Below are positions 1 through 24,676 of a DNA stretch of 34,371 nucleotides, piece after piece. A program made the translations under genes and the position numbers. Position 1 is the stretch's first letter; each line of letters begins with the position of its first letter. The DNA comes from a virus (Duplodnaviria; Caudoviricetes): positions 1-34,371 of the IMG/VR virus record IMGVR_UViG_3300022670_000465; one strand, 5' to 3'. The notes under the pieces are model-generated. The model was not told the DNA's origin. It searched no databases and saw only the letters and a program-made list of their open reading frames with translations.

Positions 1-37
1 TTCTGGTACGCCTACCCGATGCCGCAGGCCTATCTCT

Positions 38-436
38 ATGTCCGGGATCCACTGCGGTACGCGCTGTGGAGCGCGCATTACGGTGATCGCCAGGCTTACG
101 TGCCGGCTCGATATCCGATCTATTCGCCTGTCGTGTTGCACCATGATCGCAGCAGACTCCGCCGTCGAGAATGCGAGATCCGGATTCTGGCTGGTGTCCG
201 TTGACCAGGGCGATTTCTTTGGTGGCGGCAAGAAGCTCAGCCGCGGCTATGCAGGCCATCCAGGCGCCGGACCCAATGGCGAGACCTGCGGATCCTGCAC
301 GCACGTGAGGCTGCAGAGCAACACCACCCGGCGCTACTACAAGTGCGGCATCGGGAACGTCACGCGGGGACCAGGGACAGATATTCGATTGAAGACACCA
401 GCATGCGAATTTTGGAAGAGCGATACCGATGAGTGA
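38..436 (+). CDS. Cys-rich putative Zn-binding phage protein (start uncertain)
   Basis: GYAGHPGAGPNGETCGSCTH...YYKC...DIRLKTPAC pattern; stop overlaps the next ORF start. Confidence 0.55.
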   Translation: MSGIHCGTRCGARITVIARLTCRLDIRSIRLSCCTMIAADSAVENARSGFWLVSVDQGDFFGGGKKLSRGYAGHPGAGPNGETCGSCTHVRLQSNTTRRYYKCGIGNVTRGPGTDIRLKTPACEFWKSDTDE

Positions 437-854
437 CCACGGCACATTCGAAAAAGCAGCAGATCTAGTCTCGAGAGAGACAAGAGCAGATCGAGCCTGG
501 ATCCGGGAATATGTAGGTGAACTGAAGGCGCCGGAACCGATAACGCTCCAGGAATTTGTGCATGTCCTCAAGCACAAAGGACGCCATGATCGCGGAATAA
601 ACGTCAGCACCATTGACTGGATTTTTAGGGATCAGCCTATCGACTACTTGGAGATGCTGCTGGAGAAAGCCCAGGAAGAAGGGCTGATGATCAGGTACAA
701 GGGCAACTGGTTTACCTTTGGCATGTCGGTGGCCGAGTCCAAAACAGTCTGTACCCTGGATGTCGATTCCATTGGAAATTTGCACACGTCCGGTGAGACA
801 GGAAGAGGCCGAATACTCCAAAGTATTTCAGGCCTTCATCGTATCAGCTGGTGA
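429..854 (+). CDS. Hypothetical protein
   Basis: 141-aa ORF whose start overlaps the previous gene; upstream GGAAGAG. Confidence 0.6.
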   Translation: MSDHGTFEKAADLVSRETRADRAWIREYVGELKAPEPITLQEFVHVLKHKGRHDRGINVSTIDWIFRDQPIDYLEMLLEKAQEEGLMIRYKGNWFTFGMSVAESKTVCTLDVDSIGNLHTSGETGRGRILQSISGLHRISW

Positions 855-930
855 ACGAGCCAAGCAGACACGACGCGATTGATGAATGAAATTGTTAGAC
901 TCCACGAATTGGACGTGGAGGGTAACCGCG

Positions 931-1104
931 ATGCCGAGCAGATCGATGAAGCAAGCTCGCTATATGGCGATGATAGCGCACAATCCTGAAGCCGCTCGCA
1001 AAGAGGGTGGCCCGTCCAAAGCTGTCGCCGAAGAATTCACCGAAGCAGATGCCGCCTCAGGCCTGCTATCCAAAGCAATGAAGAAGAAAAATCGTGGGCG
1101 TTAG
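931..1104 (+). CDS. Small conserved basic phage protein (MPSxSxKQxRxMA..AHNP type)
   Basis: GGAGGG RBS before ATG 931; MPSRSMKQARYMAMIAHNP...VAEEF..AD resembles a recurrent small phage protein. Confidence 0.7.
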   Translation: MPSRSMKQARYMAMIAHNPEAARKEGGPSKAVAEEFTEADAASGLLSKAMKKKNRGR

Positions 1105-1402
1105 ACGCGACTGCGGCAAGTTTGCCTTGAGCGTGTCCATCTCTGCCGGCATACACCGGGCCAGTCGCAAGGACCGGCACCCAGACCCCAAACTCGTAAA
1201 GCGCGCACACAAAGCGATCGTGAAACTGCGCGAGAAATACGAAGAGAAAATCATGGAGGAACTGGGCAAGGCGATCGGCTGGGGCAAGGAAGCAGCCGAG
1301 GAGGCAGCCGCCGCAGCTAAGGCAGAGCGCCAGGCGCTGCTTGATGCAGATACCGAAGGCAGGGAGGAGAAGCAGAAGCGACGAGTAGCTGCTCGAGTTT
1401 AG
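1094..1402 (+). CDS. Hypothetical helical protein
   Basis: Overlaps the upstream stop; Ala/Glu/Lys-rich. Confidence 0.55.
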   Translation: MGVRRDCGKFALSVSISAGIHRASRKDRHPDPKLVKRAHKAIVKLREKYEEKIMEELGKAIGWGKEAAEEAAAAAKAERQALLDADTEGREEKQKRRVAARV

Positions 1403-1439
1403 CGCGTTGACGCAGTGCTCAGTACTGCGTGAGCGCGTT
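1401..1439. promoter_or_regulatory. Long inverted repeat / hairpin
   Basis: ACGCAGT 1410-1416 pairs with ACTGCGT 1424-1430; outer AGCGCGTT arms pair with G-U; no U-tract. Confidence 0.55.
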
Positions 1440-1443
1440 CGGC

Positions 1444-1596
1444 GAGAGGCAAACAACTGCATCGGGCGATGAAGGGAACGAGTAGTTCCTGGTAAAGAAC
1501 GGCTCGGGTGACGTAGTGCCACCCGCGAGAGGCCGCTGGGGAAGCGAGGCCGTAGAGTACCCAGCACATCAGCCCACCTGGGACACATAGGCTCTC
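1444..1596 (+). ncRNA. Candidate multi-branched structured RNA
   Basis: Nested pairings GAGAGGC/GCTCTC, GGGCGATG/CATC-A-GCCC, GGGAAC/GTTCCT, CGGGTG/CACCCG and GCTGGG/CCCAGC in a ~240-nt intergenic gap. Confidence 0.45.
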
Positions 1597-1639
1597 ATAC
1601 GTCGGACGTGCTCTTCGATCATTGAGAGGAGGACACGTT

Positions 1640-1828
1640 ATGGACTTTCTCAAGAAGATGGGCAAGCAAGCGATACTCGCTGGCATCGTGGCCCTGGTAC
1701 TGTTTTTCGTGTGGCCTGGAGCCACGACATTATTCTTCGGAGGCATGGCCGCGGGCATCATCATCGGCAACCTCTATGATCCCGTCGAGAAAATGGCTGA
1801 GAAAATCATCGACAAAATACCAGCTTAG
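1640..1828 (+). CDS. Small membrane protein (two hydrophobic segments, possibly holin-like)
   Basis: GAGGAGGA RBS; AILAGIVALVLFFVW and LFFGGMAAGIIIG segments. Confidence 0.7.
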   Translation: MDFLKKMGKQAILAGIVALVLFFVWPGATTLFFGGMAAGIIIGNLYDPVEKMAEKIIDKIPA

Positions 1829-1837
1829 GAGACCGCC

Positions 1838-2056
1838 ATGGGCCGCAGGAAAGATCTCAAACGCAGGCAGGGAAATCGTGCCGGCATAGCGCGCAACAGA
1901 CTGCGCGAGGCACAAGCAACGAACGGAGGCGGCGCCACTGCAGCCGTGGATCCAGCGACAGACAAAGAATGCCCGAGGTGCGGAGCGAAACCTGGCGAGG
2001 TTTGCGTGACGCCCAGCGGTAACCCGGCAGCCAAGACACACGCCGCTCGAGGGTGA
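1838..2056 (+). CDS. Zinc-finger protein (CPxCxAxPGxxC...HxxR)
   Basis: AGGAG RBS; ECPRCGAKPGEVC...THAAR. Confidence 0.75.
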   Translation: MGRRKDLKRRQGNRAGIARNRLREAQATNGGGATAAVDPATDKECPRCGAKPGEVCVTPSGNPAAKTHAARG

Positions 2057-2107
2057 TAGACTCCGCGAGCAGCAATAGCCGCAGATAACCATTGTTGGAG
2101 GGCTTCA

Positions 2108-2380
2108 ATGGACGAGCGATTAAAACCAGGGCAGCTACACGAGACGCCCACGGAGAATAATCCTGCTGACACCTATCCCGATGAAGGCGATGTCGAATTC
2201 GGGCTGCGTGAGATGGAGGACTATCCACACTTCCCACCGTATGACCCGCCCAAAGCTACCCGAGCGGCCGATGAAGGCTCCTCTTCTGAACTGCGTAGCG
2301 AAAGGCAGGCCGATGCGGAGAGCGGCGGCTACGACGATCCTGGCTATGGCAAGGTTCGTACGTTCCCATCGCAGAAGTAG
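2108..2380 (+). CDS. Hypothetical acidic protein
   Basis: GGAGGG RBS; TAGTG overlap with the next ORF. Confidence 0.65.
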   Translation: MDERLKPGQLHETPTENNPADTYPDEGDVEFGLREMEDYPHFPPYDPPKATRAADEGSSSELRSERQADAESGGYDDPGYGKVRTFPSQK

Positions 2381-2715
2381 TGGCCGATCGAAGGGCAGAT
2401 CGTAGGGCGAATGCAGGCAGGCCTGATAAGCCGAAGCCAGTTGTTGCTCACGGTGCGCCGCTATCAACACCGAAGCCGAGCACACGGCCGCGCCCCAAAG
2501 TGGGTCCAGCCGATGCTGCAACCAGGCGCCGCGAGATTGAACGTCGCGTCCAGGAAGGCAAAGACGCCAGCGAGAAAGCACGCGATAAACCGGTCACGAA
2601 AGCAGCGTCACCCAAGCCACCGCCGAGGACTATCGGCAAGCCTGGTCGGTCCACGTACGATGTACTACGAGACCGAGGCAAGGACACGGATGTAGCCGTG
2701 GAGAGGGAGCAGTAG
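2380..2715 (+). CDS. Hypothetical basic, Pro-rich protein
   Basis: TAGTG-coupled at both ends. Confidence 0.6.
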   Translation: MADRRADRRANAGRPDKPKPVVAHGAPLSTPKPSTRPRPKVGPADAATRRREIERRVQEGKDASEKARDKPVTKAASPKPPPRTIGKPGRSTYDVLRDRGKDTDVAVEREQ

Positions 2716-2954
2716 TGCCCTCTTCGCGGTCAGCCAAAGAGATCTGCCGCGAGGATCCGCATGGCATCTCCTGCAAGGTAGCAACGAAGCGCGAGGCGCG
2801 ACGTAAGCGCCGCGAGGAGGAGTACGGCGAAGCGCCGGCACCCAAGCCACCGCCAAAGAAGCCAGAGAAAAAGAAGCCAACGAAGCCAGCTACCCAGCGC
2901 CGCAAGTATCTCGAAGAGAAGATCCGCGAGGCCGAGGGCGGCAAGCCAAGCTGA
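2715..2954 (+). CDS. Hypothetical basic protein
   Basis: GGAG RBS, TAGTG coupling; K/P/E-rich. Confidence 0.6.
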   Translation: MPSSRSAKEICREDPHGISCKVATKREARRKRREEEYGEAPAPKPPPKKPEKKKPTKPATQRRKYLEEKIREAEGGKPS

Positions 2955-2997
2955 ACGAGACGCGAACGAAACACGAACGAGAAACGAACGGTCGTTC
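2953..2997. repeat. 11-bp-period direct repeat array (GAACGA(G/A)A..C) ending in the inverted repeat GAAC-GGTC-GTTC
   Basis: GAACGAGACGC / GAACGAAACAC / GAACGAGAAAC / GAACG followed by GTCGTTC. Confidence 0.8.
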
Positions 2998-3018
2998 AAG
3001 TCCAGACGAGGTCACGAC

Positions 3019-3402
3019 ATGAAGAGACGAGGATTCCTGAAGCGCCTAGCCGGCGTAGCCACTGCAGCTGTAATTAGCGAGAAGCTCATTCCTGATGACG
3101 GTGTGGCGCTGGGCAGCATGAAGCATCCGGTCCTGCTGCACGATGCCGCGCATCATGACCTGACCGAAGGCTTCGGCCTGGCGCAGGCAAAGGTCGAGGG
3201 CAGCACCATGCTCTACGACGAACTGGCTGCACCTGATCTCACCGAGGCATCGCTCGAGCAGGCGTGCATCGAAATCAAGAAGCGCGGCGGTATCATGACC
3301 AGGGCCGAGTTCTCTGAGCAGCTGGCCGATGGCCTGAATAAAGCATTCAAGGACGTGTACGCAGAGTACGAGCCTGGCGGCTGGGACGATGACAACGCAT
3401 GA
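3019..3402 (+). CDS. Twin-arginine-signal protein made of shuffled major-capsid-like segments
   Basis: GAGG RBS; MKRRGFLKRLAGVATAAV N-terminus; four blocks match MCP aa 138-148, 52-69, 164-177 and 3-27. Confidence 0.85.
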   Translation: MKRRGFLKRLAGVATAAVISEKLIPDDGVALGSMKHPVLLHDAAHHDLTEGFGLAQAKVEGSTMLYDELAAPDLTEASLEQACIEIKKRGGIMTRAEFSEQLADGLNKAFKDVYAEYEPGGWDDDNA

Positions 3403-3508
3403 CGAGCGACCGCCGGCACTAGCGGGGATCCCCCTGCGCACGTGGCTCATGTTGGTGATAGGCATGATCTTGGTCTGGGTAGCGCTGGGCTACCTGGTGC
3501 TTGGGTGA
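3389..3508 (+). CDS. 39-aa membrane peptide (not in ORF track)
   Basis: MTTHDERPPALAGIPLRTWLMLVIGMILVWVALGYLVLG; overlaps both neighbours (GTGA junction at 3505-3508). Confidence 0.55.
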   Translation: MTTHDERPPALAGIPLRTWLMLVIGMILVWVALGYLVLG

Positions 3509-3963
3509 ATCCGAAGCTGCTTGGTACCGTGACGACTCCAAAAGTGCTGATATACGTTGACGACGGGCACATCGACGTCATGCATACACGTGGCGTCGAG
3601 GTCGCTGTGATCGTTGAGGGGGAGGACGTAGAGATCCCTGACGACTGGCGCGGACTCATGGGCAGGCAGCATCATTCGCTCCCAATCACCGTAAATCGGG
3701 CAGAATTGCCTCAAAAGCGGGCACTACAGTGCGATTCTACGTCACTCGCGGCACCCAACACCCAAGTACATCACTCTACGGCACGTAATGGAGGGATGAA
3801 AGCGCCGTATTGCTATGACTGCGATGGCAACCATCCAGTCAGCATAGGCTGCGATGGCCTGCCGAAGACCTGCAGCTGCTGCGGTGCGAGCTACGGACAG
3901 TTGCACAGCACTGGCTGCGCTGACCAGAACCCGCTCGCCGAAGGCGGGAACATAGTGCAGTGA
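3505..3963 (+). CDS. Hypothetical protein with C-terminal Cys/His Zn-binding region
   Basis: GTG start coupled to the previous stop; CYDC...H...C and CSCC...H...C motifs. Confidence 0.55.
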   Translation: MNPKLLGTVTTPKVLIYVDDGHIDVMHTRGVEVAVIVEGEDVEIPDDWRGLMGRQHHSLPITVNRAELPQKRALQCDSTSLAAPNTQVHHSTARNGGMKAPYCYDCDGNHPVSIGCDGLPKTCSCCGASYGQLHSTGCADQNPLAEGGNIVQ

Positions 3964-4157
3964 ACTGGCTCAAGGTTGTCGTGGTCTATTACATCCTGGT
4001 CTACCTATTGATCGGCCGTATCGCCGTCGACGTTTTCGACCTGGTCACCTGGGGGAATATGATCGGCTTATTCTTTGGTTGTTGTATCGGCCATTACTTG
4101 GGTAAAATAGACAGCGGTGGGTTACAGGTAGGCAGCGGTAGGAGCCGGAAAGCGTGA
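3960..4157 (+). CDS. Small membrane protein
   Basis: GTGA overlap; two hydrophobic stretches. Confidence 0.55.
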   Translation: MNWLKVVVVYYILVYLLIGRIAVDVFDLVTWGNMIGLFFGCCIGHYLGKIDSGGLQVGSGRSRKA

Positions 4158-4176
4158 AGCGGACCACAGGAATACG

Positions 4177-4353
4177 ATGGAAGTACGAGGCAACGATCAG
4201 CGCAGGGCTGAGCTAAGCGAACTGAGCAAGCTGCTCGGAGGGTACGATATTGTCATCGACAACGAGATTCCGGAGGACGAGATCCACGTCATCGAAAAGC
4301 TCAACGGTGGTCTGCCGGCCAAGCAGGTCGTCTACCTCGACGAGTGTGCCTGA
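4177..4353 (+). CDS. 58-aa hypothetical protein (not in ORF track)
   Basis: AGGA RBS; MEVRGNDQRRAELSELSKLLGGYDIVIDNEIPEDEIHVIE...; GC3-rich codons. Confidence 0.55.
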   Translation: MEVRGNDQRRAELSELSKLLGGYDIVIDNEIPEDEIHVIEKLNGGLPAKQVVYLDECA

Positions 4354-4456
4354 GCGATACCAGTACGGGTGGCGGGATCCGCGGATCATGTCGCAGGAGG
4401 AACTCAAAAGCTGGTGGATGAGATCCATGCTCGATTGCGCCAGGCTCCAGCTGTGA
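4346..4456 (+). CDS. 36-aa peptide beginning with an MCP C-terminus-like motif
   Basis: MPERYQYGWRDPRIMSQEELKSWW...; overlaps both neighbours; same frame as ORF-track 4250..4456. Confidence 0.45.
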   Translation: MPERYQYGWRDPRIMSQEELKSWWMRSMLDCARLQL

Positions 4457-4644
4457 ACGCCATCAACGAATTGCCGTCGATCGACTACAGTGACCTGATC
4501 GAGAAGTGGGGCGGTCAGCGCGTCGAAAAGACGATGATCTTCATCGAGCTATCGGAGGATGCCCGCGGTCTGCTGGTCAGCATTCCCTGCACGCAAGAGC
4601 GAGTCGAAGCGGTCCTCGAGGCCGTGTATGGTGAGTACGAATAG
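4453..4644 (+). CDS. Hypothetical protein
   Basis: GTGA coupling; MNAINELPSIDYSDLIEKWGG... Confidence 0.55.
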   Translation: MNAINELPSIDYSDLIEKWGGQRVEKTMIFIELSEDARGLLVSIPCTQERVEAVLEAVYGEYE

Positions 4645-4648
4645 GCCG

Positions 4649-4936
4649 ATGCCAAGAATGGCACTGGGTCCGGTTGAGAACGCACGAGTTGAGATTGGAG
4701 GGGAAATCATGGCTGACGATTTAACATGGATCCGGGTGACCGATCGCTTACCGGCCTTCGGCGACAAGGTGATGGTGACCAGAGACACTGGTGGTCCCAG
4801 GCGGTTGGTCGAGCAGGCGTCACGCAAATGCATCGACTCCCGCGGCGAGGTCTGGGATGCCGCCGACCGGAATTCAGAACTGACTGACGTGATTGCCTGG
4901 GCACTGATTCCGAACGCGGCAGCAGCGAACCCATGA
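4649..4936 (+). CDS. DUF551-like protein (core from ATG 4709) with in-frame N-terminal LGPVENARVE extension
   Basis: WIRVTDRLP...VMV...W...V.AW..IP pattern; GGAGGG RBS before 4709. Confidence 0.65.
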   Translation: MPRMALGPVENARVEIGGEIMADDLTWIRVTDRLPAFGDKVMVTRDTGGPRRLVEQASRKCIDSRGEVWDAADRNSELTDVIAWALIPNAAAANP

Positions 4937-5142
4937 AGGCTTACATCGGCACGAAGATCGTCCAGGCAGAGCCTGAAGAAAAGCGCAGCGACCTGGCCAC
5001 CGGTCGTGTCATTGAGCAGGGCTACAAAGTCGTGTACGAGGATGGATACACATCCTGGTCGCCGAAGGATGTCTTCGAGCGCTGCTATCGCGAAGTGACA
5101 GAGGACGAGTACGAGCTTGTTTCCACCGGAGATGAATCATGA
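4933..5142 (+). CDS. YIGTK/GYxSWSP-family small phage protein
   Basis: MKAYIGTKIVQAEP...GYKVVYEDGYTSWSPKDVFERCY. Confidence 0.8.
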   Translation: MKAYIGTKIVQAEPEEKRSDLATGRVIEQGYKVVYEDGYTSWSPKDVFERCYREVTEDEYELVSTGDES

Positions 5143-5780
5143 TCAGTTACGGAGACCGCGATAAGCGGATGCTTGAACGATGGACAGACTGGCGCCGCCG
5201 GCTACGAGCGCCCAGCTGGGTGCCGATGCTGATGTATGCCGGCGTGATCATCATGGCGCTGCTGTTGTCCATGCAGGCCAAAGCTGGCGAGGCAACGCTG
5301 TCCTGGACGGCGCCGACGCAGAACACGGATGGATCGGCGCTGACTGACCTGGCCGGCTTCAAGATCTACGCCGGCCTCGTGCAAGGTGGACCGTACGGAG
5401 ACGTCAGCATCACGATCAACAATCCGACGACGACGACATTCGTGGTGCCAGGCCTCGCCGAGGGGACAACGTACTTTTTCGTAACGACGGCATTCAATAG
5501 CGCGAACCCGGTGCAGGAGAGCGACTTCAGCAACGAGGTCAGCAAACTCATTCCGCCGCTGGTCCCGGCGCCGCCGACCATGCTGACAGTGCAGAATCTG
5601 CTGGTCTGGGATGTCCTCAAGGAGGATGATCACTTCAAGTTCCTGGGTGTTGGCACGGTGCCAGGCGGCACTGCGTGTGATCCAACACAGACCGTGAACG
5701 GCAGGTATGTGGTGCCTAACGATCTGGTGGAATGGTTCGGCAACGTCCAGCCGCCAGTGGTGGTCGCCGACTGTTCATGA
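5139..5780 (+). CDS. Exported fibronectin type III-like protein
   Basis: Hydrophobic segment ending QAKA/GE; ATLSWTAP...GFKIY...GLAEGTTYFFVTTAFN...ESDFSNEV. Confidence 0.8.
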   Translation: MISYGDRDKRMLERWTDWRRRLRAPSWVPMLMYAGVIIMALLLSMQAKAGEATLSWTAPTQNTDGSALTDLAGFKIYAGLVQGGPYGDVSITINNPTTTTFVVPGLAEGTTYFFVTTAFNSANPVQESDFSNEVSKLIPPLVPAPPTMLTVQNLLVWDVLKEDDHFKFLGVGTVPGGTACDPTQTVNGRYVVPNDLVEWFGNVQPPVVVADCS

Positions 5781-5893
5781 GATGGTGGCGTCGATTACGG
5801 GCCTGGCTATGTCGAAGGTTCGGATGGTTTTGCAAGAAGGATCCGCTGGGTCCTGTGGAGAATGCGAGGGTTGAGGTTTCTAATGCGGGCTGA
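5777..5893 (+). CDS. 38-aa Trp/Arg-rich peptide with LGPVENARVE motif (not in ORF track)
   Basis: ATGA coupling; MRWWRRLRAWLCRRFGWFCKKDPLGPVENARVEVSNAG. Confidence 0.6.
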   Translation: MRWWRRLRAWLCRRFGWFCKKDPLGPVENARVEVSNAG

Positions 5894-5911
5894 TCCCGCA
5901 AGGAGCGAAAG

Positions 5912-6070
5912 ATGGACGAGAAAAAGAGGGAAGATCGAGGCGTAGCATTGAATGAAGCCGCAAGGCATCGGCTGGCAAACGAGGATGCCGATGCAGTGGT
6001 CAGCAACGCGGAGAAATACTTCAAGTTTCTGCAAGGCGATGGAGAGAGCGATGACGACAGCGACAGCTAA
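5912..6070 (+). CDS. 52-aa hypothetical protein (not in ORF track)
   Basis: AAGGAG RBS; MDEKKREDRGVALNEAA...VVSNAEKYFKFLQG. Confidence 0.65.
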   Translation: MDEKKREDRGVALNEAARHRLANEDADAVVSNAEKYFKFLQGDGESDDDSDS

Positions 6071-6368
6071 GTGGGGAATACCAACGAAGCGGCAGAGCGG
6101 CTTGCCGGCGGATCCTGCAGACTACAAGGGCTGCGAGATTGCGCTGGCGGTTGCCGGCGGCCCGTTCACTGTACTGTCGGCCTTGGTGCCGGCTGACACG
6201 TTCGAGCGGGTGATGCCGCCTGACCTGACGCCGGGTGATTACCTGTGCCGATACGTGCCGATCGATATAGACGATGTCCGCGGCAAGGCGACCGCGGTGC
6301 CGTTCAAGATCGCAGACGAGACGCCGCTGGATGTGGTCGACAATCCGACGGTAGAGATCAGCCCGTGA
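6051..6368 (+). CDS. Second FN3-like protein, no signal peptide
   Basis: GGAGAG RBS; TATAKWGIPTKRQSG...DYKGCEI...DLTPGDYLCRY aligns with the 5139 protein. Confidence 0.6.
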   Translation: MTTATAKWGIPTKRQSGLPADPADYKGCEIALAVAGGPFTVLSALVPADTFERVMPPDLTPGDYLCRYVPIDIDDVRGKATAVPFKIADETPLDVVDNPTVEISP

Positions 6369-6688
6369 ACGCGCTGAAGTGGGCAATCATAGCGGCGCTG
6401 GTGCTGGTCGCATCGCTGGTGATAACTTACCTGCAGCACGACGATCACTGGAGCATGGTGTACGAGGCGATCCAGACGCCCGAGCAACCGGGTGGACAGA
6501 AGCGCTTCGTGCTATTCAATGAGGACGGGCTGACGCTGCAGGCCTGCACTGACCTGTACGACGAGCACTTGCGCCGGCTGAACAACAACGGCGCGGTGAT
6601 CGAGTATGAGATCCAGTGCGAGCACCTGATGACCAAGGGCCACGGCTATCTCTTCCAGTATCAGAACCAGTGGCTGATAGGCCCATGA
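6365..6688 (+). CDS. Membrane-anchored hypothetical protein
   Basis: GTGA coupling; N-terminal WAIIAALVLVASLVITYL. Confidence 0.7.
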   Translation: MNALKWAIIAALVLVASLVITYLQHDDHWSMVYEAIQTPEQPGGQKRFVLFNEDGLTLQACTDLYDEHLRRLNNNGAVIEYEIQCEHLMTKGHGYLFQYQNQWLIGP

Positions 6689-7092
6689 TCACACCGATGC
6701 CTGACAAGAAAGAGCCACTAGCGCAGCCGCTGATCGATTACTGCGAAGAGCATTTCGATTGCGAGCTTGGACCGCCGCGGGCGTTCTTCGAGCTTCCGCA
6801 ACGCGAAGGCAAAGATCCGGTGCGTGTGATCTATCACGTGTACGCGGTTCAGGGTCCGACGTACGAGGACTGCGAGGCATGGCTGCTCGAGCACGTGTTC
6901 GAGCCGCTGCAGCAGCGAGCCGGCGACGAGGCGCGGCTGTACTGGAGAAGCGAAGACAAGATCTCGGTCGAGCCGATGCGTGACCGGGTGAAGGTTCGCA
7001 CGCGCTTGGCCGTGCTCAAAAAGATAGAGCAGGTGATCCTCGAGGAGCAGGTCATACGCGAAGGCACGCCGTGTCCGAGCACCGAGCCGTGA
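6685..7092 (+). CDS. Hypothetical protein
   Basis: ATGA coupling; GC3-rich. Confidence 0.7.
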   Translation: MITPMPDKKEPLAQPLIDYCEEHFDCELGPPRAFFELPQREGKDPVRVIYHVYAVQGPTYEDCEAWLLEHVFEPLQQRAGDEARLYWRSEDKISVEPMRDRVKVRTRLAVLKKIEQVILEEQVIREGTPCPSTEP

Positions 7093-7277
7093 ACATACCG
7101 GCCATCAGTGGTCACTGCACTCGAGGCCGAGCGCTCGAGTATGATAGCGTGATGCTGTTCACTGCCTATGGTCGCAGTTTTGCTGTGGTCGGATCTTATG
7201 ATGGCGCTGAGTGGGGGCTGTTCCTGGTGGTCAGCGATGAAGAATACGATGACTGGGCGAATCACTTTTGCAGATGA
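7089..7277 (+). CDS. Hypothetical protein
   Basis: GTGA and ATGA coupling at both ends. Confidence 0.5.
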   Translation: MNIPAISGHCTRGRALEYDSVMLFTAYGRSFAVVGSYDGAEWGLFLVVSDEEYDDWANHFCR

Positions 7278-7567
7278 AGAGACGCACATTCATTTTGGGC
7301 GCGGTCGCTGCTGCGGTCAGCGCCGCTCTGCCGGCACTGCCGAGCTACGAGTACAAGACGTATCGCATGGCCTTCAACTTCACACGCGAAACGGTCGGCA
7401 GGAATGAGTATTCTGAGATCGGTGATCGAATGGCTAAGGCGCTGGCCAGGTCGATGATGCAGACCAAGGAGCGAGTCATCGCGGACACGTTGAACCAGAT
7501 GTTTCCAGATTCGGGCGAGGGCGCACGGAGATCGGTCGGGGTCGAGGGCAGTCCTGATCGTATTTAA
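7274..7567 (+). CDS. Twin-arginine-signal protein carrying an MCP-homologous segment
   Basis: MKRRTFILGAVAAAVSAALP; aa 25-77 align without gaps to MCP aa 78-130. Confidence 0.85.
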   Translation: MKRRTFILGAVAAAVSAALPALPSYEYKTYRMAFNFTRETVGRNEYSEIGDRMAKALARSMMQTKERVIADTLNQMFPDSGEGARRSVGVEGSPDRI

Positions 7568-9174
7568 TGATGGCAATGAGCTTGTCGCATCAGCAGGCGA
7601 CCTTCACAGAGATGGAGGCCGAATGGCTGCGTCGAGATCTCAGGCGCTATGTGCCGGCGGTCTGGCCGCTGGTCGAATCCAGGGAGTTCAAAAACAACTG
7701 GCACATTGATGCCATCTGCGACCACCTGGCGTACGTCACGCTGGGAGACATCCGCAACCTGATCATCAACGTACCGCCGCGGCAAACGAAGTCGCTGACG
7801 GTCTCGGTCATCTGGCCTACCTGGTGGTGGGCCGAGGAACCCGAGATCCAGTTCATGTACGCCAGCTACTCGCATGACCTGGCGCTGCGTGATGCGGTCA
7901 AGGCCAGGGACATCATCCAGTCGGGCTGGTACCAGGAACGCTACGGCGGCAAGTTCTACCTGGATCCCGGGCAGAATCAGAAGGCCCGCTACGTCAACGA
8001 CAAGCACGGCTATCGGATCTCGACGTCCTGCCTCGGCAAGACCACGGGCGAAGGCGGCGACGTGCTGTGCATCGATGACCCGCACAACATGGCAGACGTG
8101 CACTCGGATCCGAAGCGCCACTCCACCCTCAGCTGGTACGACAACAGCTGGCGGTCACGTCTTAATGACCCAACCACAGGCCAGAAGGTCATCATCTGTC
8201 AGCGGTCTCACGACATGGACCTGGTCGGGCATATCCTCGACGGCGAAGCCGGCCGCTGGGTAGTGCTGATGCTGCCGAATGAGTACGACACGAAGCGCCA
8301 CTGCCGGACGTTCATCAATCCGAAGGGCCGCGATCTTGACTACAAGGAAATGCTCGAGAAGAAGGTCGAGCCGCTGTACGAGGACCAGCGCACGAAACCT
8401 CGAGACCTGCTCAATCCGCAGCGCTTTGGTGACGAGGAGACCAAGACCGAGAAGGCCGGCATGGGCACGGTCGACTACGAGGCCCAGTACAACCAGGACC
8501 CGGAGGCCGGCGGCGGTCTGATCCTGAAGCGCAAGTGGTGGCAGAACTGGGCGTACCCGCCGAACCACCCGAAGCAGGGCGAGCAGATGCCATACCCTGA
8601 GTGGGAGCAGATCATTTCGGTCTACGACACTGCGTTCAAGAAAGGCCAGGAGAACGATTACTCAGCGCGCACCAGCTGGGGACTGTTCTGGCATTCGATC
8701 ACCGGCCGCAAGGAAGACAACTGCCTCAACGCGATGCTGCTCGAGCGCATGAATGAGCGGATGGAGTTCGGCGAGCTTCGCGAGGCAGCGATCCGGCACG
8801 AGAAGGGCTGGGATCCGGACCACACGCTGATCGAAGACAAGGCCTCCGGCATCAGCCTGATCCAGGAGTTCGAGGCCGGCGGCATCCCGGTGTGGAAAGT
8901 GAAGGCGGGACCTGAGGACCTGGCGTATCGAGCGCACATGGTCTCGGGGATCCTGCGTGCCGGCAGGATCTGGTACGTCTCGAGGGACTGGGCGTTCGAC
9001 GTCATCAGCCAGTGCGCCAAGTTCCCGCTGGTCGAGCATGACGACCTGGTCGCCACCTGCGTGATCGCCTGGGCGTTCATGCGGCGGATGGGCGACATGG
9101 AGCTACCGGACGACGAGAAGGCCAACGAACTTGCGCTCTGGACCAGGCCGAAGCCCAAGTCGCCATATGGCTAA
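7567..9174 (+). CDS. terL: Terminase large subunit
   Basis: Walker A-like NVPPRQTKS, Walker B LCIDDPH, QYNQDP, nuclease motifs YDTA..DYSA, IEDKASG and HDDLV. Confidence 0.97.
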   Translation: MMAMSLSHQQATFTEMEAEWLRRDLRRYVPAVWPLVESREFKNNWHIDAICDHLAYVTLGDIRNLIINVPPRQTKSLTVSVIWPTWWWAEEPEIQFMYASYSHDLALRDAVKARDIIQSGWYQERYGGKFYLDPGQNQKARYVNDKHGYRISTSCLGKTTGEGGDVLCIDDPHNMADVHSDPKRHSTLSWYDNSWRSRLNDPTTGQKVIICQRSHDMDLVGHILDGEAGRWVVLMLPNEYDTKRHCRTFINPKGRDLDYKEMLEKKVEPLYEDQRTKPRDLLNPQRFGDEETKTEKAGMGTVDYEAQYNQDPEAGGGLILKRKWWQNWAYPPNHPKQGEQMPYPEWEQIISVYDTAFKKGQENDYSARTSWGLFWHSITGRKEDNCLNAMLLERMNERMEFGELREAAIRHEKGWDPDHTLIEDKASGISLIQEFEAGGIPVWKVKAGPEDLAYRAHMVSGILRAGRIWYVSRDWAFDVISQCAKFPLVEHDDLVATCVIAWAFMRRMGDMELPDDEKANELALWTRPKPKSPYG

Positions 9175-9613
9175 TCGAGCGAGCTACGATTTCCTGGTGC
9201 TCGATGTACCGACAATCGGAGAGCGGAAGTTCGTTAAATATCGGCGAGGTCCCTGCGGGGTCAATTCGCGATTGCGTCGGCGGTTCGGACTAGAAATGGT
9301 TCTGATCAAGGCTGAGGACTTTGAGGCTGGATGGTCTATTGATGCAGGGTATATCCCAGAAGACTTGTCGACGGGCAGAAGAGCCAGGAACGTAGAGGTA
9401 TCGGACCATCGATTCGAACGGTTTGAAAAGTTCCTTGCTGAGAATGGAGCCATCGAAACCGCCAATGTAGGCATCCATGCAGGTGGGCATATCGGCGTTA
9501 GGGATGGTCGCCACAGGACTCGCGTACTGTTGAATCTGGGAATGGAAGCCATACCAGTGACCATGACAAAGGAATCTGTGGATCTTTTCGAGCGGTACCG
9601 CGAACTATTGTGA
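9167..9613 (+). CDS. ParB/Sulfiredoxin-fold protein (Osa/fertility-inhibition-like)
   Basis: DGRHR motif followed by VLLNLGMEAIPV; visibly more AT-rich than its flanks. Confidence 0.6.
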   Translation: MANRASYDFLVLDVPTIGERKFVKYRRGPCGVNSRLRRRFGLEMVLIKAEDFEAGWSIDAGYIPEDLSTGRRARNVEVSDHRFERFEKFLAENGAIETANVGIHAGGHIGVRDGRHRTRVLLNLGMEAIPVTMTKESVDLFERYRELL

Positions 9614-10082: not shown

Positions 10083-10318
10083 GCCGGACCACCAAGATGA
10101 TCAGTGACGCTGAGATCATGTTCGCGAGGAGCGATGCGTGCGTGGCGATGGAATCGCTGCGCGGTCGCTGGCATGAGATGTCTGATGACTGGCGCGCTTT
10201 CACCGGGGGCTGGTGCCTTGCCTACAGCCTTAAGCTTGACAAGGTGCTGGCCAGGCACGGCATTAAGCTTGACAACGATCCAGAGCTTGAGCGTTTATTG
10301 GCGAAGCGCTATGAGTAG
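10079..10318 (+). CDS. Hypothetical protein
   Basis: ATGA coupling. Confidence 0.55.
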   Translation: MSRTTKMISDAEIMFARSDACVAMESLRGRWHEMSDDWRAFTGGWCLAYSLKLDKVLARHGIKLDNDPELERLLAKRYE

Positions 10319-10502
10319 GTGGAGTCATTTGATCTGCGATGGTTGCTGGAGTGAGCGACATCCACATCGAGAGCCGATCAGAATAAAAGATCCCGAGACT
10401 GAGCCGTGCTGCTTTTGTGATATCCCGACGAGTTCAGGAGTCTGGCTACGTGCTGATCCTGCCAACATGTCATGCAGGCACGTGGAAGCGGTCGGTGGCT
10501 GA
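10311..10502 (+). CDS. Small Zn-finger protein
   Basis: HLICDGCW...EPCCFC; overlapping start. Confidence 0.65.
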   Translation: MSRWSHLICDGCWSERHPHREPIRIKDPETEPCCFCDIPTSSGVWLRADPANMSCRHVEAVGG

Positions 10503-10686
10503 AGAGGCAGATTTCGAGGGCGCGTTTCTGGCCTTTGCTACATTGCTCGATGCCATCGAGCGAGCAGTAGATGATGGCAGCCGGGAAGAGGTCGATCGCT
10601 TGGTTCACACTCGTTTCGAGCTAGTCGAGCAGTACGGCCTGACGGTCGAATTCACAGGGATGCTGGTCAGTGGCAAAAAGCACTGA
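10495..10686 (+). CDS. Hypothetical protein
   Basis: GTG start overlapping the previous stop. Confidence 0.55.
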   Translation: MAEEADFEGAFLAFATLLDAIERAVDDGSREEVDRLVHTRFELVEQYGLTVEFTGMLVSGKKH

Positions 10687-12492: not shown

Positions 12493-12714
12493 ATGAGCAC
12501 GATCTACTACTGTGACGCTGCAAGCTGCAACAAGAAAGAACCTGGCCGACCATCTAGCTCTGGCTGGGCACCGCCAGACGGCTGGTCGACTTTCGCGCAA
12601 GGAATGGACGTCGTCGACGCCTGCAGCCCGGAGCATCAGGAGGCGATCGAAGCCGCCAATACGCCTGAAGAGGAACCCGAAGAGGAAGCCGAGGCTGAGG
12701 CCGAAGAGAGTTGA
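12493..12714 (+). CDS. Small Cys-containing protein with acidic tail
   Basis: AAGGAG RBS; CDAASC...PPDGW...DACSPEH. Confidence 0.7.
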   Translation: MSTIYYCDAASCNKKEPGRPSSSGWAPPDGWSTFAQGMDVVDACSPEHQEAIEAANTPEEEPEEEAEAEAEES

Positions 12715-13178
12715 GTCGGCTGGTCCTGTGGCCTGACCCGCGACTGCGTGAGATCTGCGCGGAAGTGCGGGAGGACACGGACTGCAGCGAGATCATCGAT
12801 GCCCTGATCGAGGTGAAGGAAGAGCATCACGGCCTGGGCATCGCGGCTCCGCAGATCGGCGCGATGGTCCGCATCATCGTCGTCGAAGATTTGATCGTCA
12901 TCAATCCGCGCATCGTGAAGCGCTCCCAGCAAAGGCGTTGGGTCTGGGAGGGCTGTCTGTCATTCCCCGAGACCTTGCCGAAGTACGCCCAGGACATGGG
13001 TATGGTGCGCGATGGCGATCGAGTGCGCGTGCGCCGGCACAAGCGGATCCAGGTCGAAGGCTTTGACCGCAACTGGAAACCGTTCACAGCGAGAGGACGC
13101 GATTGGAAAGGCGCGTGCCTTGAACATGAGATCGAACATCTCGACGGCATCACGTTGAACGATCACCGTAGACGATAG
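12711..13178 (+). CDS. def: Peptide deformylase
   Basis: All three PDF motifs: GLGIAAPQIG, EGCLS, HEIEHLDG. Confidence 0.96.
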   Translation: MSRLVLWPDPRLREICAEVREDTDCSEIIDALIEVKEEHHGLGIAAPQIGAMVRIIVVEDLIVINPRIVKRSQQRRWVWEGCLSFPETLPKYAQDMGMVRDGDRVRVRRHKRIQVEGFDRNWKPFTARGRDWKGACLEHEIEHLDGITLNDHRRR

Positions 13179-16522: not shown

Positions 16523-16720
16523 TTGAACAAACGGCAAATTCTGAATCGCATCGATGAAAAAGTCTCAGATGCCCACGACGCAATGGACACCGGGCTACCC
16601 GACGAAAAGTACAACCGCAAGGTTGGCGAAGTCGGCGCGCTCAAGGATCTACGTGATTTTGTCGTGGAACTCTCGGATGACGATGCCGATGATGATGAAC
16701 TGGAGGAACTACGAGCATGA
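16523..16720 (+). CDS. Small conserved head-module protein
   Basis: Y.RKVGEVGAL motif; ATGA-coupled to the GroES-like gene. Confidence 0.65.
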   Translation: MNKRQILNRIDEKVSDAHDAMDTGLPDEKYNRKVGEVGALKDLRDFVVELSDDDADDDELEELRA

Positions 16721-17235
16721 CCGAAACCGCTGAACGAGTCGTTGACCTGGTCGTCGCATCAGACACGAAAGCTAAGGCAGCTAATGCCAAATACGATGAA
16801 ATCGAAGCATGGTGCGCAGATCAAAGACGATGGCAAGTTCGGCTGCGGAATTTTTTGCGGCCCTGGCATACACCGCGGGCGCCGCACGTTCCGTTCAGAC
16901 CTTTGTACTGGCGATGCCTTGTCATGATTCGCGAACCAGACGAGACCACCGAGTGGGGGTTTCAACTGATGCGCGAGAGCATAGACATCGAATCGTATCT
17001 AACGTACGTGGGGATGGTGGTTGCGGTCGGCAAGCTCGCTTACAAGGCGAAGACTCGCTCAGGGCTTAAGCTCAGCGACGAGGACAATCCGAAGCTAGGC
17101 GACAAGGTAGTGTTCTACAAGAACGCCGGCACTCGTTTTCGAACGATTGACGGCATGCAGTTCGTACAAATCACCGACACCGAAATGTGGGGCGAGACAG
17201 ATCAGCCGGAGAGACTCGATACGTTAGCGATCTAA
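16717..17235 (+). CDS. GroES-like co-chaperonin
   Basis: RPLYWRCLV...ETTEWGF.L...GMVVAVG...KLGDKVVF.KNAGT...ITDTEM follows the Cpn10 pattern. Confidence 0.8.
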   Translation: MTETAERVVDLVVASDTKAKAANAKYDEIEAWCADQRRWQVRLRNFLRPWHTPRAPHVPFRPLYWRCLVMIREPDETTEWGFQLMRESIDIESYLTYVGMVVAVGKLAYKAKTRSGLKLSDEDNPKLGDKVVFYKNAGTRFRTIDGMQFVQITDTEMWGETDQPERLDTLAI

Positions 17236-17295
17236 TCATCGTGACAACGTGCACGTGACTCTGTAAGTTTCATGCACAGGCCGCTGGAGGGCAGC

Positions 17296-18345
17296 ATGCC
17301 TAAGAAAGATTTCGACTATCAGTTCGAAGATATCCGCCGTGAAGACACGCCGGTATCTGCCGCTGGGTTTGGCGACATTGTCGAAGAGCTAGAGGACCCA
17401 AGCGAGGCTTTTGTTGAGGTCGACCTCGAAGAGGAAGATCCCGGTAAAGCTGTGAGCGCCGCTACGTCAGTCGCCGATGAGGATACATCCGCGAACGATA
17501 AAGACGGTGGCTCGAAAGACCAACGACGCGCAGCGCTGGACGCCAGGCGCAAAACAGATCAGTTAGAGCAGGACCTCGATGAGCGAAGCACCGAGGTTGC
17601 CGGCGAGCTAAGCACCCTGAGACAGGAGGTTGCGGAACTCAAGGCAGTCAAGGAAATCGATGCCATCGAGGAAGAGTTCTCCGGCGAGGAAGCCGAGCTT
17701 ACCGTGAAGATGGAAGCGGCGATGGAGGAAGGCGATACCAAAGCCCAGTCCGCGCTGAACTCGCAACTGATCAAGCTCAACAGCGACAAGCAGGCCAAGC
17801 AGGCTGCTGCCGAGGCCTCTGTGACTATCATCGAGGACCTGGACGCTGGTGGCGCTGCAGATCAGCCCGCTAACAAGCGCGCTGTGCAATTCATTCGGGA
17901 CAACCAGGAATGGTGGTCGGATCCCGATCATGAAGATGCTGTCGTGTACGTCAGGAAACTTGACAAGAAGCTCGTTGCAATGGGCTTCGATCCAGACAGC
18001 GATGCCTACTGGACTCGCTTCAACCACAACTTTGACAAGAAGTACGACGGCCTCCGCGAGATGGACCCGGACGATATCGATGTCGATCTCGATCTTGGTC
18101 AGGACACGGGCAAGGGCCGCCGCAAGTCACATGTTGCTCCACCCGGCGGTGCCGGCGGGACGCGGCGTGGGACCAAGCGCGGCGACAACGGTCAAGGTAG
18201 TGGTTCGAAAGTTGTGCTGACCGCTCGGCATAAGCAGAACATGGTGCAATTCGGGCTAGACCCGCAAAACGCCGAACACTGCGCGAATTATGCCAAAGAG
18301 GTAGCAGCTACGCAGAAACGAGATGCGGAAAGGAGGGTGTCATGA
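17296..18345 (+). CDS. Putative capsid scaffolding protein
   Basis: GGAGG RBS; acidic coiled-coil; N.EWW...L...GFDPDSD.YW; located between portal and capsid genes. Confidence 0.7.
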   Translation: MPKKDFDYQFEDIRREDTPVSAAGFGDIVEELEDPSEAFVEVDLEEEDPGKAVSAATSVADEDTSANDKDGGSKDQRRAALDARRKTDQLEQDLDERSTEVAGELSTLRQEVAELKAVKEIDAIEEEFSGEEAELTVKMEAAMEEGDTKAQSALNSQLIKLNSDKQAKQAAAEASVTIIEDLDAGGAADQPANKRAVQFIRDNQEWWSDPDHEDAVVYVRKLDKKLVAMGFDPDSDAYWTRFNHNFDKKYDGLREMDPDDIDVDLDLGQDTGKGRRKSHVAPPGGAGGTRRGTKRGDNGQGSGSKVVLTARHKQNMVQFGLDPQNAEHCANYAKEVAATQKRDAERRVS

Positions 18346-19744: not shown

Positions 19745-20659
19745 ATGGCTATGAATCGCGCTGACTTTAGAAAGCAGCTACAGGAAGGGCTGAACACGGT
19801 GTTCGGCATGGAGTACGCACGCTACCCAGAAGAGTGGAAATATCTTTTCGCAATCGAACGGTCGGTCAAGGCCTTCGAGGAAGATGTCCTGCTCGCTGGC
19901 TTCGACGCAGCACCGGTCAAGCCTGAAGGGGAGGGTGTCGCGTACGACGAGGGGGCAGAGAGTTACGTTGCCCGATATACGCATGAGACGATCGCATTGG
20001 CTTTCTCAATAACCGAGGAAGCTGAAGAGGACGGCTTATACGGCTCTATCGGTAGCAAGTACGCTCGAGCGCTCGCTCGCTCACTACAACAGACCAAAGA
20101 AGTTAAGGGCGCTGACGTCCTGAATAACGGCTTCGACGCTACCTTCCCAGGTGGCGACGGCGTGCCGCTGTTCAGTGCATCACATCCGCAGTTCGGCGGT
20201 GGCGTCCAGGCTAACACCCTGGCAGTCGCAGCTGATCTGTCCGAGGCTTCATTGGAGCAGGCAGCCATTGACATCTCTGAGTTTGACGATGACCGGGGAA
20301 TCCCGATCGCCTGTCAGATCAAGAAGATGGCAGTGCCGACGCAACTGCAGTTCGTGGCAACACGCATCCTGCAGTCGCCGTATCGCACGGGAACGGGCGA
20401 TAACGACATCAATGCAATCAACACGTTGGGAACTGTTGCTGATGGATTCTGTGTAAATCACCGATTTACCGATCCAGATGCTTGGTTTCTTTTAACGGAT
20501 TGCCCTGATGGGCTGAAGCATTTTGTGCGCAAGAACGTGCAGCGAGGAATCGAGGGCGACTTCGAGACCGGCAACCTGCGCTACAAGGCACGAGAGCGCT
20601 ACAGCTACGGCTTTTCTGACTGGCGTGGAGCTTACGGTTCACCAGGAGGTGGCACCTAA
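19745..20659 (+). CDS. Major capsid protein (HK97-like fold inferred)
   Basis: MAMNRADFRKQLQEGLNTVFGMEY, RYTHETIALAFSITEEA.ED, ALARS..QTK, GDFETGN.RYKARERYS.G..D.R; size and position. Confidence 0.93.
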   Translation: MAMNRADFRKQLQEGLNTVFGMEYARYPEEWKYLFAIERSVKAFEEDVLLAGFDAAPVKPEGEGVAYDEGAESYVARYTHETIALAFSITEEAEEDGLYGSIGSKYARALARSLQQTKEVKGADVLNNGFDATFPGGDGVPLFSASHPQFGGGVQANTLAVAADLSEASLEQAAIDISEFDDDRGIPIACQIKKMAVPTQLQFVATRILQSPYRTGTGDNDINAINTLGTVADGFCVNHRFTDPDAWFLLTDCPDGLKHFVRKNVQRGIEGDFETGNLRYKARERYSYGFSDWRGAYGSPGGGT

Positions 20660-23231: not shown

Positions 23232-23930
23232 ATGGCAACCACAGGCTCATTTTTATTCGACCCGAACCTTGCGGTGATCTGCGACGAGGCGGTCGAGCGC
23301 GCCGGCATGAACCTGCAGGAGATCACGGGTACGCACATCATTTCGATCAGGCGCTCGTGTGGTTTCCTGCTGTCGTCCTGGTCCAACCGCGGACACCGGC
23401 AGTGGACGTTCGAACAAATTGAGCACACGGTCACGCCCGGTGAGGTCAGCTTTGATCTGCCGGTTGGTACGATCGAGGTCCAGTCTGCGGTGGTGCGCAG
23501 GAATGACGTCGACACCGAAATCTACCCGATTTCGAGGGAGGACTATCTGATCCTGCACGACAAGAACCTGATCGGGCGACCGGACAGATACTTCATTGAC
23601 CGTCGTCGCGATACTGATATCGGCGTTAACCAGGTCCAGGTGTTCTTCTGGCTGGCCGGCGAGAACACGACCGACATCATCATCATGAACGTCTACAAGC
23701 AGATCCAGGACGTCGGCAACGCACAGAACACGCTCGACATCCCATTCAGATTCCAGGAGGCCTTCGTTTCTGACCTGGCTGCCAGGGTGGCGCTGAAATA
23801 CAACGAGGCAAAATTCCCAGGACTGCAGGGACTTGCCGACAAAGAGTGGGTGTTGGCCCACGATGAAGACAGGGACACCGCACCGCTGGTGATATCCGCG
23901 AACTACTCACGATTGCACGGGAGACCGTAA
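23232..23930 (+). CDS. Head-tail adaptor / tail tubular protein
   Basis: MATTGS..F...I.DEA.ER.G...RRS...L...W.NRG...W, ISR.DY...GRP..Y, DIPFRF pattern. Confidence 0.75.
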   Translation: MATTGSFLFDPNLAVICDEAVERAGMNLQEITGTHIISIRRSCGFLLSSWSNRGHRQWTFEQIEHTVTPGEVSFDLPVGTIEVQSAVVRRNDVDTEIYPISREDYLILHDKNLIGRPDRYFIDRRRDTDIGVNQVQVFFWLAGENTTDIIIMNVYKQIQDVGNAQNTLDIPFRFQEAFVSDLAARVALKYNEAKFPGLQGLADKEWVLAHDEDRDTAPLVISANYSRLHGRP

Positions 23931-24676
23931 TGGCACTGTCACGATCAATGAAGAATCTTATGCACGACTCTGCCATGGCGAGGCGTGGAGGTGGGACTCA
24001 CAATCCAGATGGAGGCGGCAGGTCGGGCATGATTGGCCGAGCGATGCAGAAAGCCAGAGGTCAATACAATCCTGGTCCGAAGCTGCAGCGTGGCCCTTCT
24101 GGTCCTACCCGAGGTCCTCGAGGTCCGGTGAAGCCAGCTGGAGGAGGCCGTGCAAGCATGGTTTCTCAAGCGATGGAGCGATTTCAGCAGCAGCGAGGCG
24201 GTGCTGGTGGGCGCAATCCCGTGACTGGTGGCCCTGGCCTGCCGCCAAGGGCTGGTCCAAAGCCACGACGAGGTATGGCGCAGATTGCTGTTCCTGGTGG
24301 CAGGATGCCGAGAGGTGGGGTGATGGGTGGCCCGGCAGGCGGTGCGGGTAAGCCACGACCAGGTGCCGGCACATTCGGCTTCGCAAGTCGGGGCGGTGGC
24401 GGCACGCCGGCTCTGCAGGAGGCAACGGCCGGCGCCAGGTCGCAGGTCATGAGGCAAGCAGCGGCCAGACCTACTGGTTTACCTGGCGCCATGTCGGGAG
24501 CACAGCAGCAAGCCGCAATGCAGAGGTCGAGAGCGGCCGGACCTGCAGCGCTTGCTAAGCCACGAGGACAGTCTGTTGCGTCACGGATTGGTGGCCAACA
24601 GGGACCGCCGGCCCGTAGAGGCGGCATGGCTCGAGCTTTAGGTAGCGGTGGATCCAGACGTCGAATGCTGAGGTGA
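23930..24676 (+). CDS. Low-complexity Gly/Arg/Pro/Met-rich basic protein
   Basis: GGAG RBS, TAATG coupling; very few acidic residues. Confidence 0.65.
   Translation: MALSRSMKNLMHDSAMARRGGGTHNPDGGGRSGMIGRAMQKARGQYNPGPKLQRGPSGPTRGPRGPVKPAGGGRASMVSQAMERFQQQRGGAGGRNPVTGGPGLPPRAGPKPRRGMAQIAVPGGRMPRGGVMGGPAGGAGKPRPGAGTFGFASRGGGGTPALQEATAGARSQVMRQAAARPTGLPGAMSGAQQQAAMQRSRAAGPAALAKPRGQSVASRIGGQQGPPARRGGMARALGSGGSRRRMLR

Follow-up and report, generated by a model that had tools for sequence, protein, structure and literature searches.

The window analysed here is the whole stretch of 34,371 nucleotides making up IMG/VR record IMGVR_UViG_3300022670_000465 (Caudoviricetes), and every feature of it described below lies on the plus strand. 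An accessory gene at 7274-7567 encodes a protein of 97 aa consisting of a leader, a segment derived from the major capsid protein (MCP) and a tail next to the terminase gene. The leader (aa 1-20, 7274-7333) is of the twin-arginine type, with a basic n-region, an RRxF-I-L motif, an alanine-rich h-region and Pro20. It is followed by an MCP strand module (aa 25-45, MCP residues 78-98; 7346-7408), which is variable and often replaced in relatives, by a module corresponding to the long (spine) helix of the MCP (aa 46-77, MCP 99-130; 7409-7504), and by a separate tail element (aa 78-97, 7505-7567) that forms a mini-ORF of 20-21 codons in relatives without the leader-MCP gene. Within the helix module a 33-nt block (7439-7471) is nearly invariant among relatives and matches the phage's own MCP gene at 21 of 33 positions; within the tail, a predicted RNA hairpin with a 9-bp core (7533-7560, possibly extending over 7529-7565) ends just before the start of the next gene. 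That gene is terL, the terminase large subunit (7570-9174; phrog_38, E 1.5e-65), whose conserved start is 7570 rather than 7567. Upstream lies a 62-aa ORF (7089-7277) whose stop overlaps the start of the 97-aa gene (ATGA) and which has no family match in PHROG or Pfam. The MCP, of the HK97 fold, is encoded at 19745-20659 (phrog_371, E 2e-17) and belongs to the same group as those of Roseobacter phage CRP-901 and Pelagibacter phage HTVC023P; among isolated phages, these two have the most similar MCPs (58% and 54.5%).

The 97-aa protein has no PHROG match, the ESM Atlas gave nothing usable for it, and an Rfam scan of window positions 6800-8000 returned no match; a promoter scan found 3 sites against 2.6 expected. 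At least 11 sequencing runs from five studies contain half or more of the region's words, nine of them labelled sediment metagenomes, and one run may be the source; no RNA run is among the listed holders, three RNA-type runs with a small share having been left out. The gene is intact in contigs from two other studies (runs X3 and X4).

The first-pass annotation had aligned aa 25-77 without gaps to MCP residues 78-130 with 24 of 53 identities, and this alignment was confirmed (BLASTP E 1e-11): its score of 107 compares with a mean of 29 and a maximum of 56 for shuffled sequences, none of 2000 being as high. The accompanying assignment to the strand and long spine helix of the HK97 fold also holds, because a model of the MCP built from a 28-sequence alignment (pLDDT 85.5) places a strand at residues 81-89 and helices at 91-95 (short) and 99-127 (long) and structurally matches HK97-fold capsids; a sequence search with the MCP alignment found no solved structure. 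At the DNA level 70 of 159 nt of the segment are identical to the phage's own MCP gene and third codon positions are at background (15 of 53), so the likeness is either old or kept at the protein level, and the same figures rule out that the copy acts as a nucleic acid, whether as antisense or by recombining with the phage's MCP gene. The 97-aa protein is not a complete, ordered HK97-fold MCP, since it covers only 53 of 304 residues. Its single-sequence fold, computed without an alignment, reached a pLDDT of 53 and was set aside as unreliable.

The leader of the window protein, K-R-R-T-F-I, fits the Tat motif Z-R-R-x-phi-phi (PMC13673990) at the boundary of the n- and h-regions. Among 214 proteins with a basic pair, RR is found in 210, with F at +3 in 97% and L or I in 94%; these counts come from protein searches and are biased by the query, and a further 22 of 236 short matches had no basic pair, many of them being cut MCPs or late start calls. 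The fetched loci contain 31 unique short ORFs bearing the helix motif; 30 carry an RR leader and the remaining one is cut by the contig end, so that the RR motif, whose loss among homologues had been named beforehand as the result that would speak against the first reading, proved to be conserved. Against PF10518 the window leader scores E 0.012 and 15.9 bits, missing the curated cut-off of 22.7; 46 of 56 family members match this model at E<=0.05 (best E 4.5e-7), and 33 of 56 match TIGR01409 at E<=0.1. The best 12-residue hydropathy of the h-region is 2.3 in the window protein (family median 1.9), and A-x-A occurs 14-32 residues after RR in only 36 of the 214 proteins. The passenger of the window protein is 77 aa long with a maximum 19-residue hydropathy of -0.18, and family passengers, with a median of 80 aa, are hydrophilic. 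Tat can cope with hydrophilic passengers that lack structure over 100-120 aa (PMC6708511), and poorly folded ones can stall it (PMC13673990). The window protein has the sequence features of a Tat substrate apart from the curated score and an evident site of cleavage.

The leader joined to an MCP segment, as first described, stands, but that description had missed a second copy and the modular shuffling of the whole family. The second member, at 3019-3402, encodes 127 aa with an RR leader and four MCP modules in permuted order (MCP 138-148, 52-69, 164-177 and 3-27), none overlapping those of the gene at 7274. Searches gave 55 homologues among 85 candidates for the 97-aa protein and 47 among 62 for the 127-aa protein, for which the ESM Atlas gave unnamed viral clusters; a profile search gave 215 clusters at E<=0.001, MCPs and some false matches included. 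Of 243 retrieved proteins, 210 are shorter than 200 aa with an early RRxF-type motif, and 207 of these carry at least one MCP module scoring above the 99th percentile of 300 shuffles. The 210 proteins show 37 module arrangements, many departing from MCP order, with modules drawn from MCP 1-31, 48-70, 76-98, 103-131, 135-148, 161-180, 205-230 and 267-304 and with coverage near zero over MCP 231-270; these figures come from related sequences, from searches that favour helix-bearing members and from module detection that favours conserved MCP regions. All mapped modules derive from HK97-fold MCPs of PHROG 371 / PF25209. A tblastn search of 50,697 phage records found no short gene of this kind in isolated phages, its 8 matches all lying within capsid genes; none of 174 pattern matches in prokaryote genomes was confirmed, and PADLOC gave no match for 56 family members.

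RR leaders also carry passengers of no detectable virion-protein origin. ORFs of about 170 aa with an RR leader and one passenger in common directly follow helix-bearing genes on the plus strand of four contigs (L010 10421-10942, L085 1424-1930, L123 2367-2879 and L128 1340-1855), and for that of L010 neither a family nor a longer homologue was found. Another non-MCP passenger occurs in RR-leader ORFs of about 110 aa (L092 2913-3242 and L101 2780-3121, plus strand) that have no notable PHROG match. Tests of whether these other RR-leader ORFs are pieces of other virion proteins gave no support: there was no second match in five genomes, no PHROG match below E 0.04 and none in phage records, and the lack of a match to longer proteins is weak evidence. 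On contig L088 a 67-aa RR-leader ORF (843-1046, plus strand) carries an MCP C-terminal piece (272-301, 57%), and its stop overlaps the start of a helix-bearing family member.

The tail element stands apart from the MCP copy. No MCP C-terminal module was called in it; in gene-less relatives the tail mini-ORF overlaps the stop of the upstream gene, and on contig L012 the tail forms the end of a different ORF. Its pS of 0.11 is a third of that of terL, and its pN/pS of 0.70 has an interval (0.28-2.39) that includes 1, so that a protein role for the tail is unsupported. In the hairpin, 126 of 126 cells are paired in 14 sequences, with compensatory change at 2 pairs; such pairing was reached in 3 of 500 shuffles, a figure that relatedness can inflate and for which the structure was read from the same sequences. 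The G-U pairs and compensatory changes point to RNA. Folded alone, the hairpin gave z values of -1.8 to -3.6 in 7 sequences, and in a 96-nt context it is not exceptional (z +1.5); it is also the best terminator-like site in window positions 1-9200. The overlap of stop and start (TAATG) that had been taken for translational coupling exists in the sequence, and is ruled out as a coupling signal kept by evolution. Of 14 loci, a set that leaves out L088 for want of a terL anchor, 13 have a terL start placed 2 nt beyond the stop (7570 in the window); the overlapping ATG occurs in the window's own locus only (1 of 14), being lost through T7568C in a co-occurring strain.

As a cis element distinct from the rest of the gene, the tail probably controls terL. 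The mini-ORF would be translated, and the predicted hairpin inside it would keep the terL start hidden until a ribosome passes, which would couple the two translationally; alternatively, the hairpin may be a weak terminator that the passage of a ribosome overrides. In the literature, with subscription journals thinly covered, we found no description of this hairpin, and the mini-ORF that contains it, for which Rfam has no match, is a candidate element for the control of terL. On contig L081 the tail element and terL are kept apart by an inserted 372-nt stretch (10291-10661) that holds an ORF.

A DNA pattern from the 3' end of the gene gave 25 matches, 15 of them followed by terL and 10 unrelated. 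The 15 terL-linked matches represent 10 distinct loci, of which 7 have an intact leader-MCP gene, 3 lack the gene and none has a broken copy; the frameshifts or stops in close relatives that had been put forward as evidence against a functional gene were thus absent. One of the gene-less genomes, G009, is complete (69.3 kb, with terminal repeats) and closely related to the window (MCP 99%, terL 89% and portal 89% identical), and it lacks both the gene at 7274 and the paralogue at 3019. Two other gene-less records are incomplete, and the paralogue is retained in G007 and G008. The leader-MCP gene is dispensable.

In G009 the terminase small subunit gene terS (G009 49674-50396, equivalent to 9674-10396 of contig L184; phrog_51, E 4e-13) precedes terL by about 6 kb and borders on the left the stretch that matches the window. 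The interval between them holds small variable genes and is where both leader genes lie in other genomes, so the two copies sit in a variable terS-terL island. Neither the terS-like position nor the TAATG overlap finds support as a clue to the role of the protein, given that terS lies elsewhere, the gene is absent from G009, family genes in distant phages are kilobases away from terL, and the link to terL rests on the separate tail, which persists where the gene is missing; a terS function for the 97-aa protein was rejected on the first two of these points and on its lack of a PHROG match. Expression together with the packaging genes remains likely and would be part of a late terS-terL run. 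The same island contains a gene at 5139-5780 encoding 213 aa with an N-terminal hydrophobic stretch and a weak fn3 match (E 4e-5, below cut-off), which is kept at 65-72% in relatives. Elsewhere in the window, a peptide deformylase gene (12711-13178) lies directly before the portal gene and a GroES-like gene (16717-17235) before the putative scaffold gene (17272-18345), both kept in close relatives, and a 248-aa low-complexity ORF rich in Gly, Arg, Pro and Ala (23930-24676) without a PHROG match lies inside the structural module.

In the close clade the family gene adjoins terL, and in distant phages it lies kilobases away. Among 78 pairs from 13 loci, the gene is only 37-40% identical in some pairs with terL at 91-94% (39% at 94%, 37% at 91%) and 49-55% identical in others with terL at 24-25% (55% at 24%); gene content shifts while terL stays 89-97% identical. 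In genome G001, with an MCP 99% identical, the 7274 gene is 46% identical in a local match, and the 3019-3402 paralogue, at 79% in G001, is steadier among relatives. These sequence comparisons show that variation in the gene is decoupled from the terL and MCP lineage. In runs X10 and X11 the leader and helix are kept and the middle is replaced, with joints from 7334 or 7345 to 7439; these are single contigs of depth 4-7 at an 85% threshold and serve as supporting evidence. The joints end at 7439, and loose ends fall at 7441 and 7470-7472 in other samples. Modules are swapped among close relatives, we infer by recombination in short shared DNA blocks, for which the 33-nt block at 7439-7471 and the leader are the likely exchange points.

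Pooled over pairs, which are not independent, pN/pS is 0.31 (0.18-0.44) for the leader in 15 sequences and 0.45 (0.32-0.58) for the helix in 25, or 0.50 (0.35-0.66) for the helix without the codons of the search pattern; the value for terL is 0.08. By this measure, leader and helix are under purifying selection. In a 48-member paralogue family, column entropy follows that of the MCP (rho 0.52, 68 columns), with 0.62 bits for the leader, 1.14 for the modules and 1.21 for the linkers, the modules being hardly more conserved than the linkers; for the helix the correlation with the MCP is weak, at rho 0.43, and with the anchor motif removed it is 0.23, which is not significant.

As to whose capsid is copied, the window's helix module matches its own MCP at 18 of 32 residues (tied first of 28) and the strand module at 6 of 21 (rank 20 of 28), and for two modules of the window's paralogue the own MCP is again tied first of 28. 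Across six genomes that contain both genes, the rank of the own MCP out of 30 is 1 (tie), 10, 14, 27, 24 and 24. When 114 helix cores are compared, the carriers' own MCPs make up 5 of the bottom 6 of 44, and the cores fit another MCP sub-lineage best (16.5 against 11.5-13.7 of 26). The helix persists even between phages with an MCP identity of 38%. Tests of whether the own capsid or that of a rival is the one copied showed that neither idea applies in every case. A fair reading of the sequences is that the mimicry is family-generic rather than self-specific, which applies at the family level only because the window's own MCP is tied first for the helix and two paralogue modules.

The absence from G009, the selection and the intact copies exclude an essential assembly role and pseudogene decay, and what remains is a selected resemblance to conserved MCP parts, in changing combinations, behind a Tat-type leader. 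Our bioinformatic analysis leads us to propose, tentatively and with a confidence that stops short of calling it probable, that the protein is a Tat-targeted decoy for host sensors of unassembled MCP, acting through tethering or export. The gene would be an optional, exchangeable cassette; its leader is predicted to engage the host Tat translocase, the short conserved MCP pieces would bind a host protein that recognises unassembled MCP, and the bound protein would be held at the membrane or carried out of the cytoplasm. Since the N-arm and spine helix are largely buried in an assembled HK97-fold shell, what the target recognises is most likely cytoplasmic MCP that is not yet assembled. Partner proteins can be carried through Tat alongside a leader-bearing protein (hitchhiker export). 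A more elaborate version, which we regard as doubtful, is that the family constitutes a combinatorial library of self-derived decoys, in which conserved capsid epitopes shuffled through short homologies would be placed behind a Tat leader that drags or exports capsid sensors as hitchhikers; if so, it would represent anti-defence by targeted mislocalisation via a host export machine, and the repertoire of pieces would reveal the parts of the capsid that bacteria monitor. The main objection to the decoy is that the sensor Avs7 reads a whole fold, mainly the A-domain, which pieces of 10-30 residues may not mimic, and that the modules avoid the later part of the A-domain. A fragment could also trigger a sensor instead of blocking it.

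The pieces might instead poison assembly in co-infecting relatives by binding foreign MCP or scaffold and tethering or removing it via Tat, which we consider rather unlikely. The preference of the 114 cores for another MCP sub-lineage and the movement of the gene between phages with terL about 24% identical would suit such a weapon, and a satellite is described as redirecting helper assembly with a capsid homologue (Ccm; PMC8569155). The window's own MCP is, however, as close to the helix as any, so that self-poisoning would be expected for a gene placed between terS and terL, and Ccm, as described there, is a capsid-protein homologue occupying capsomers and not a fragment. If the gene does poison assembly, it would be a new phage-against-phage weapon.

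Full export, with the MCP pieces active periplasmically or once the cell has lysed, is to our mind unlikely; entry exclusion, a membrane-facing sensor or a released signal would be the conceivable modes. The canonical RR motif and the short hydrophilic passenger fit it as far as sequence goes, but mature shells largely bury the elements that are copied, capsids do not enter the cell, and we know of no periplasmic partner for these MCP elements. We find it similarly improbable that the leader alone matters, titrating or jamming TatBC with the MCP pieces as tolerated filler. The leader is indeed the most conserved part by both pN/pS and entropy, similar leaders carry unrelated passengers, and poorly folded passengers are described as able to stall Tat (PMC13673990). 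Against this, the helix is under purifying selection outside the search motif, conservation follows MCP-invariant residues, and the helix is kept across phages with widely different MCPs (38% identity).

A packaging or head-assembly factor of the phage itself, whether terS-like or a membrane tether for procapsids, would be in keeping with the position next to terL in the close clade and with the likeness of the window's helix to its own MCP; it is very improbable, being largely refuted by the absence of the gene from complete G009 with its 99% identical MCP, by the true terS elsewhere and by content that shifts at terL identities of 89-97%. Decay of a duplicated MCP gene, to which the background third-position identity, the short length and the pLDDT of 53 might point, is scarcely credible given 10 distinct DNA-anchored loci without a broken copy, pN/pS intervals that exclude 1 for leader and helix, and hundreds of intact homologues, and it is refuted at the family level.

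The gene is real, and its sequence architecture is one for which we found no described counterpart: the 97-aa protein is not an MCP, a terS or a Ccm, and we found no described gene class that would accommodate a mobile family in which conserved pieces of the capsid are reshuffled behind an export-type leader. No description of a Tat-type leader fused to capsid fragments was found in the literature, with subscription journals and preprint supplements little covered, and none of a fragment decoy against MCP sensors. The leader resembles Tat signal peptides (PF10518 / TIGR01409) in its basic n-region, RRxF-phi motif and alanine-rich h-region; it differs from them in being phage-encoded, with a very short n-region and without a clear cleavage site, and the passenger, unlike that of Tat substrates, is a string of capsid pieces and not a folded domain. 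HK97-fold MCPs are the source of every mapped module, whereas the family holds only pieces of 10-55 residues, often out of order. Ccm of SaPIbov5 is likewise a capsid-protein homologue turned against phage assembly, but it is described as satellite-encoded and built into capsids, whereas here fragments stand behind a leader in the phage's own genome; a Ccm-type capsid redirection protein was rejected as a candidate because the protein is only a fragment and the phage that encodes it has a portal, an MCP and a terL of its own. The closest functional model we can offer, by analogy, is DSAD1 of phage SPbeta, a small phage protein competing for the tail-tube sensor DSR2, which blocks the sensor's trigger site in competition with the virion protein (PMC11087589); the portion of text available does not describe it as a piece of the trigger or as carrying an export leader. 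Capsid proteins are known triggers of several bacterial immune systems. Avs7 binds newly made MCP monomer through whole-fold recognition, mainly of the A-domain with broad shape complementarity, and Avs8 and Avs10 also sense MCP (10.64898/2026.01.04.697583); CapRel and Thoeris are described as doing likewise (PMC13728456). The reviews that were searched describe phages escaping capsid-triggered immunity by mutating the capsid. These five systems are sensors and not decoys, and they represent the class of host targets that a capsid decoy would address. The genes of the family, at fewer than 130 codons, are testable in E. coli with published MCP sensors and Tat reporters. If the decoy reading is true, the family would embody a new anti-defence principle and provide a natural list of sensed epitopes.
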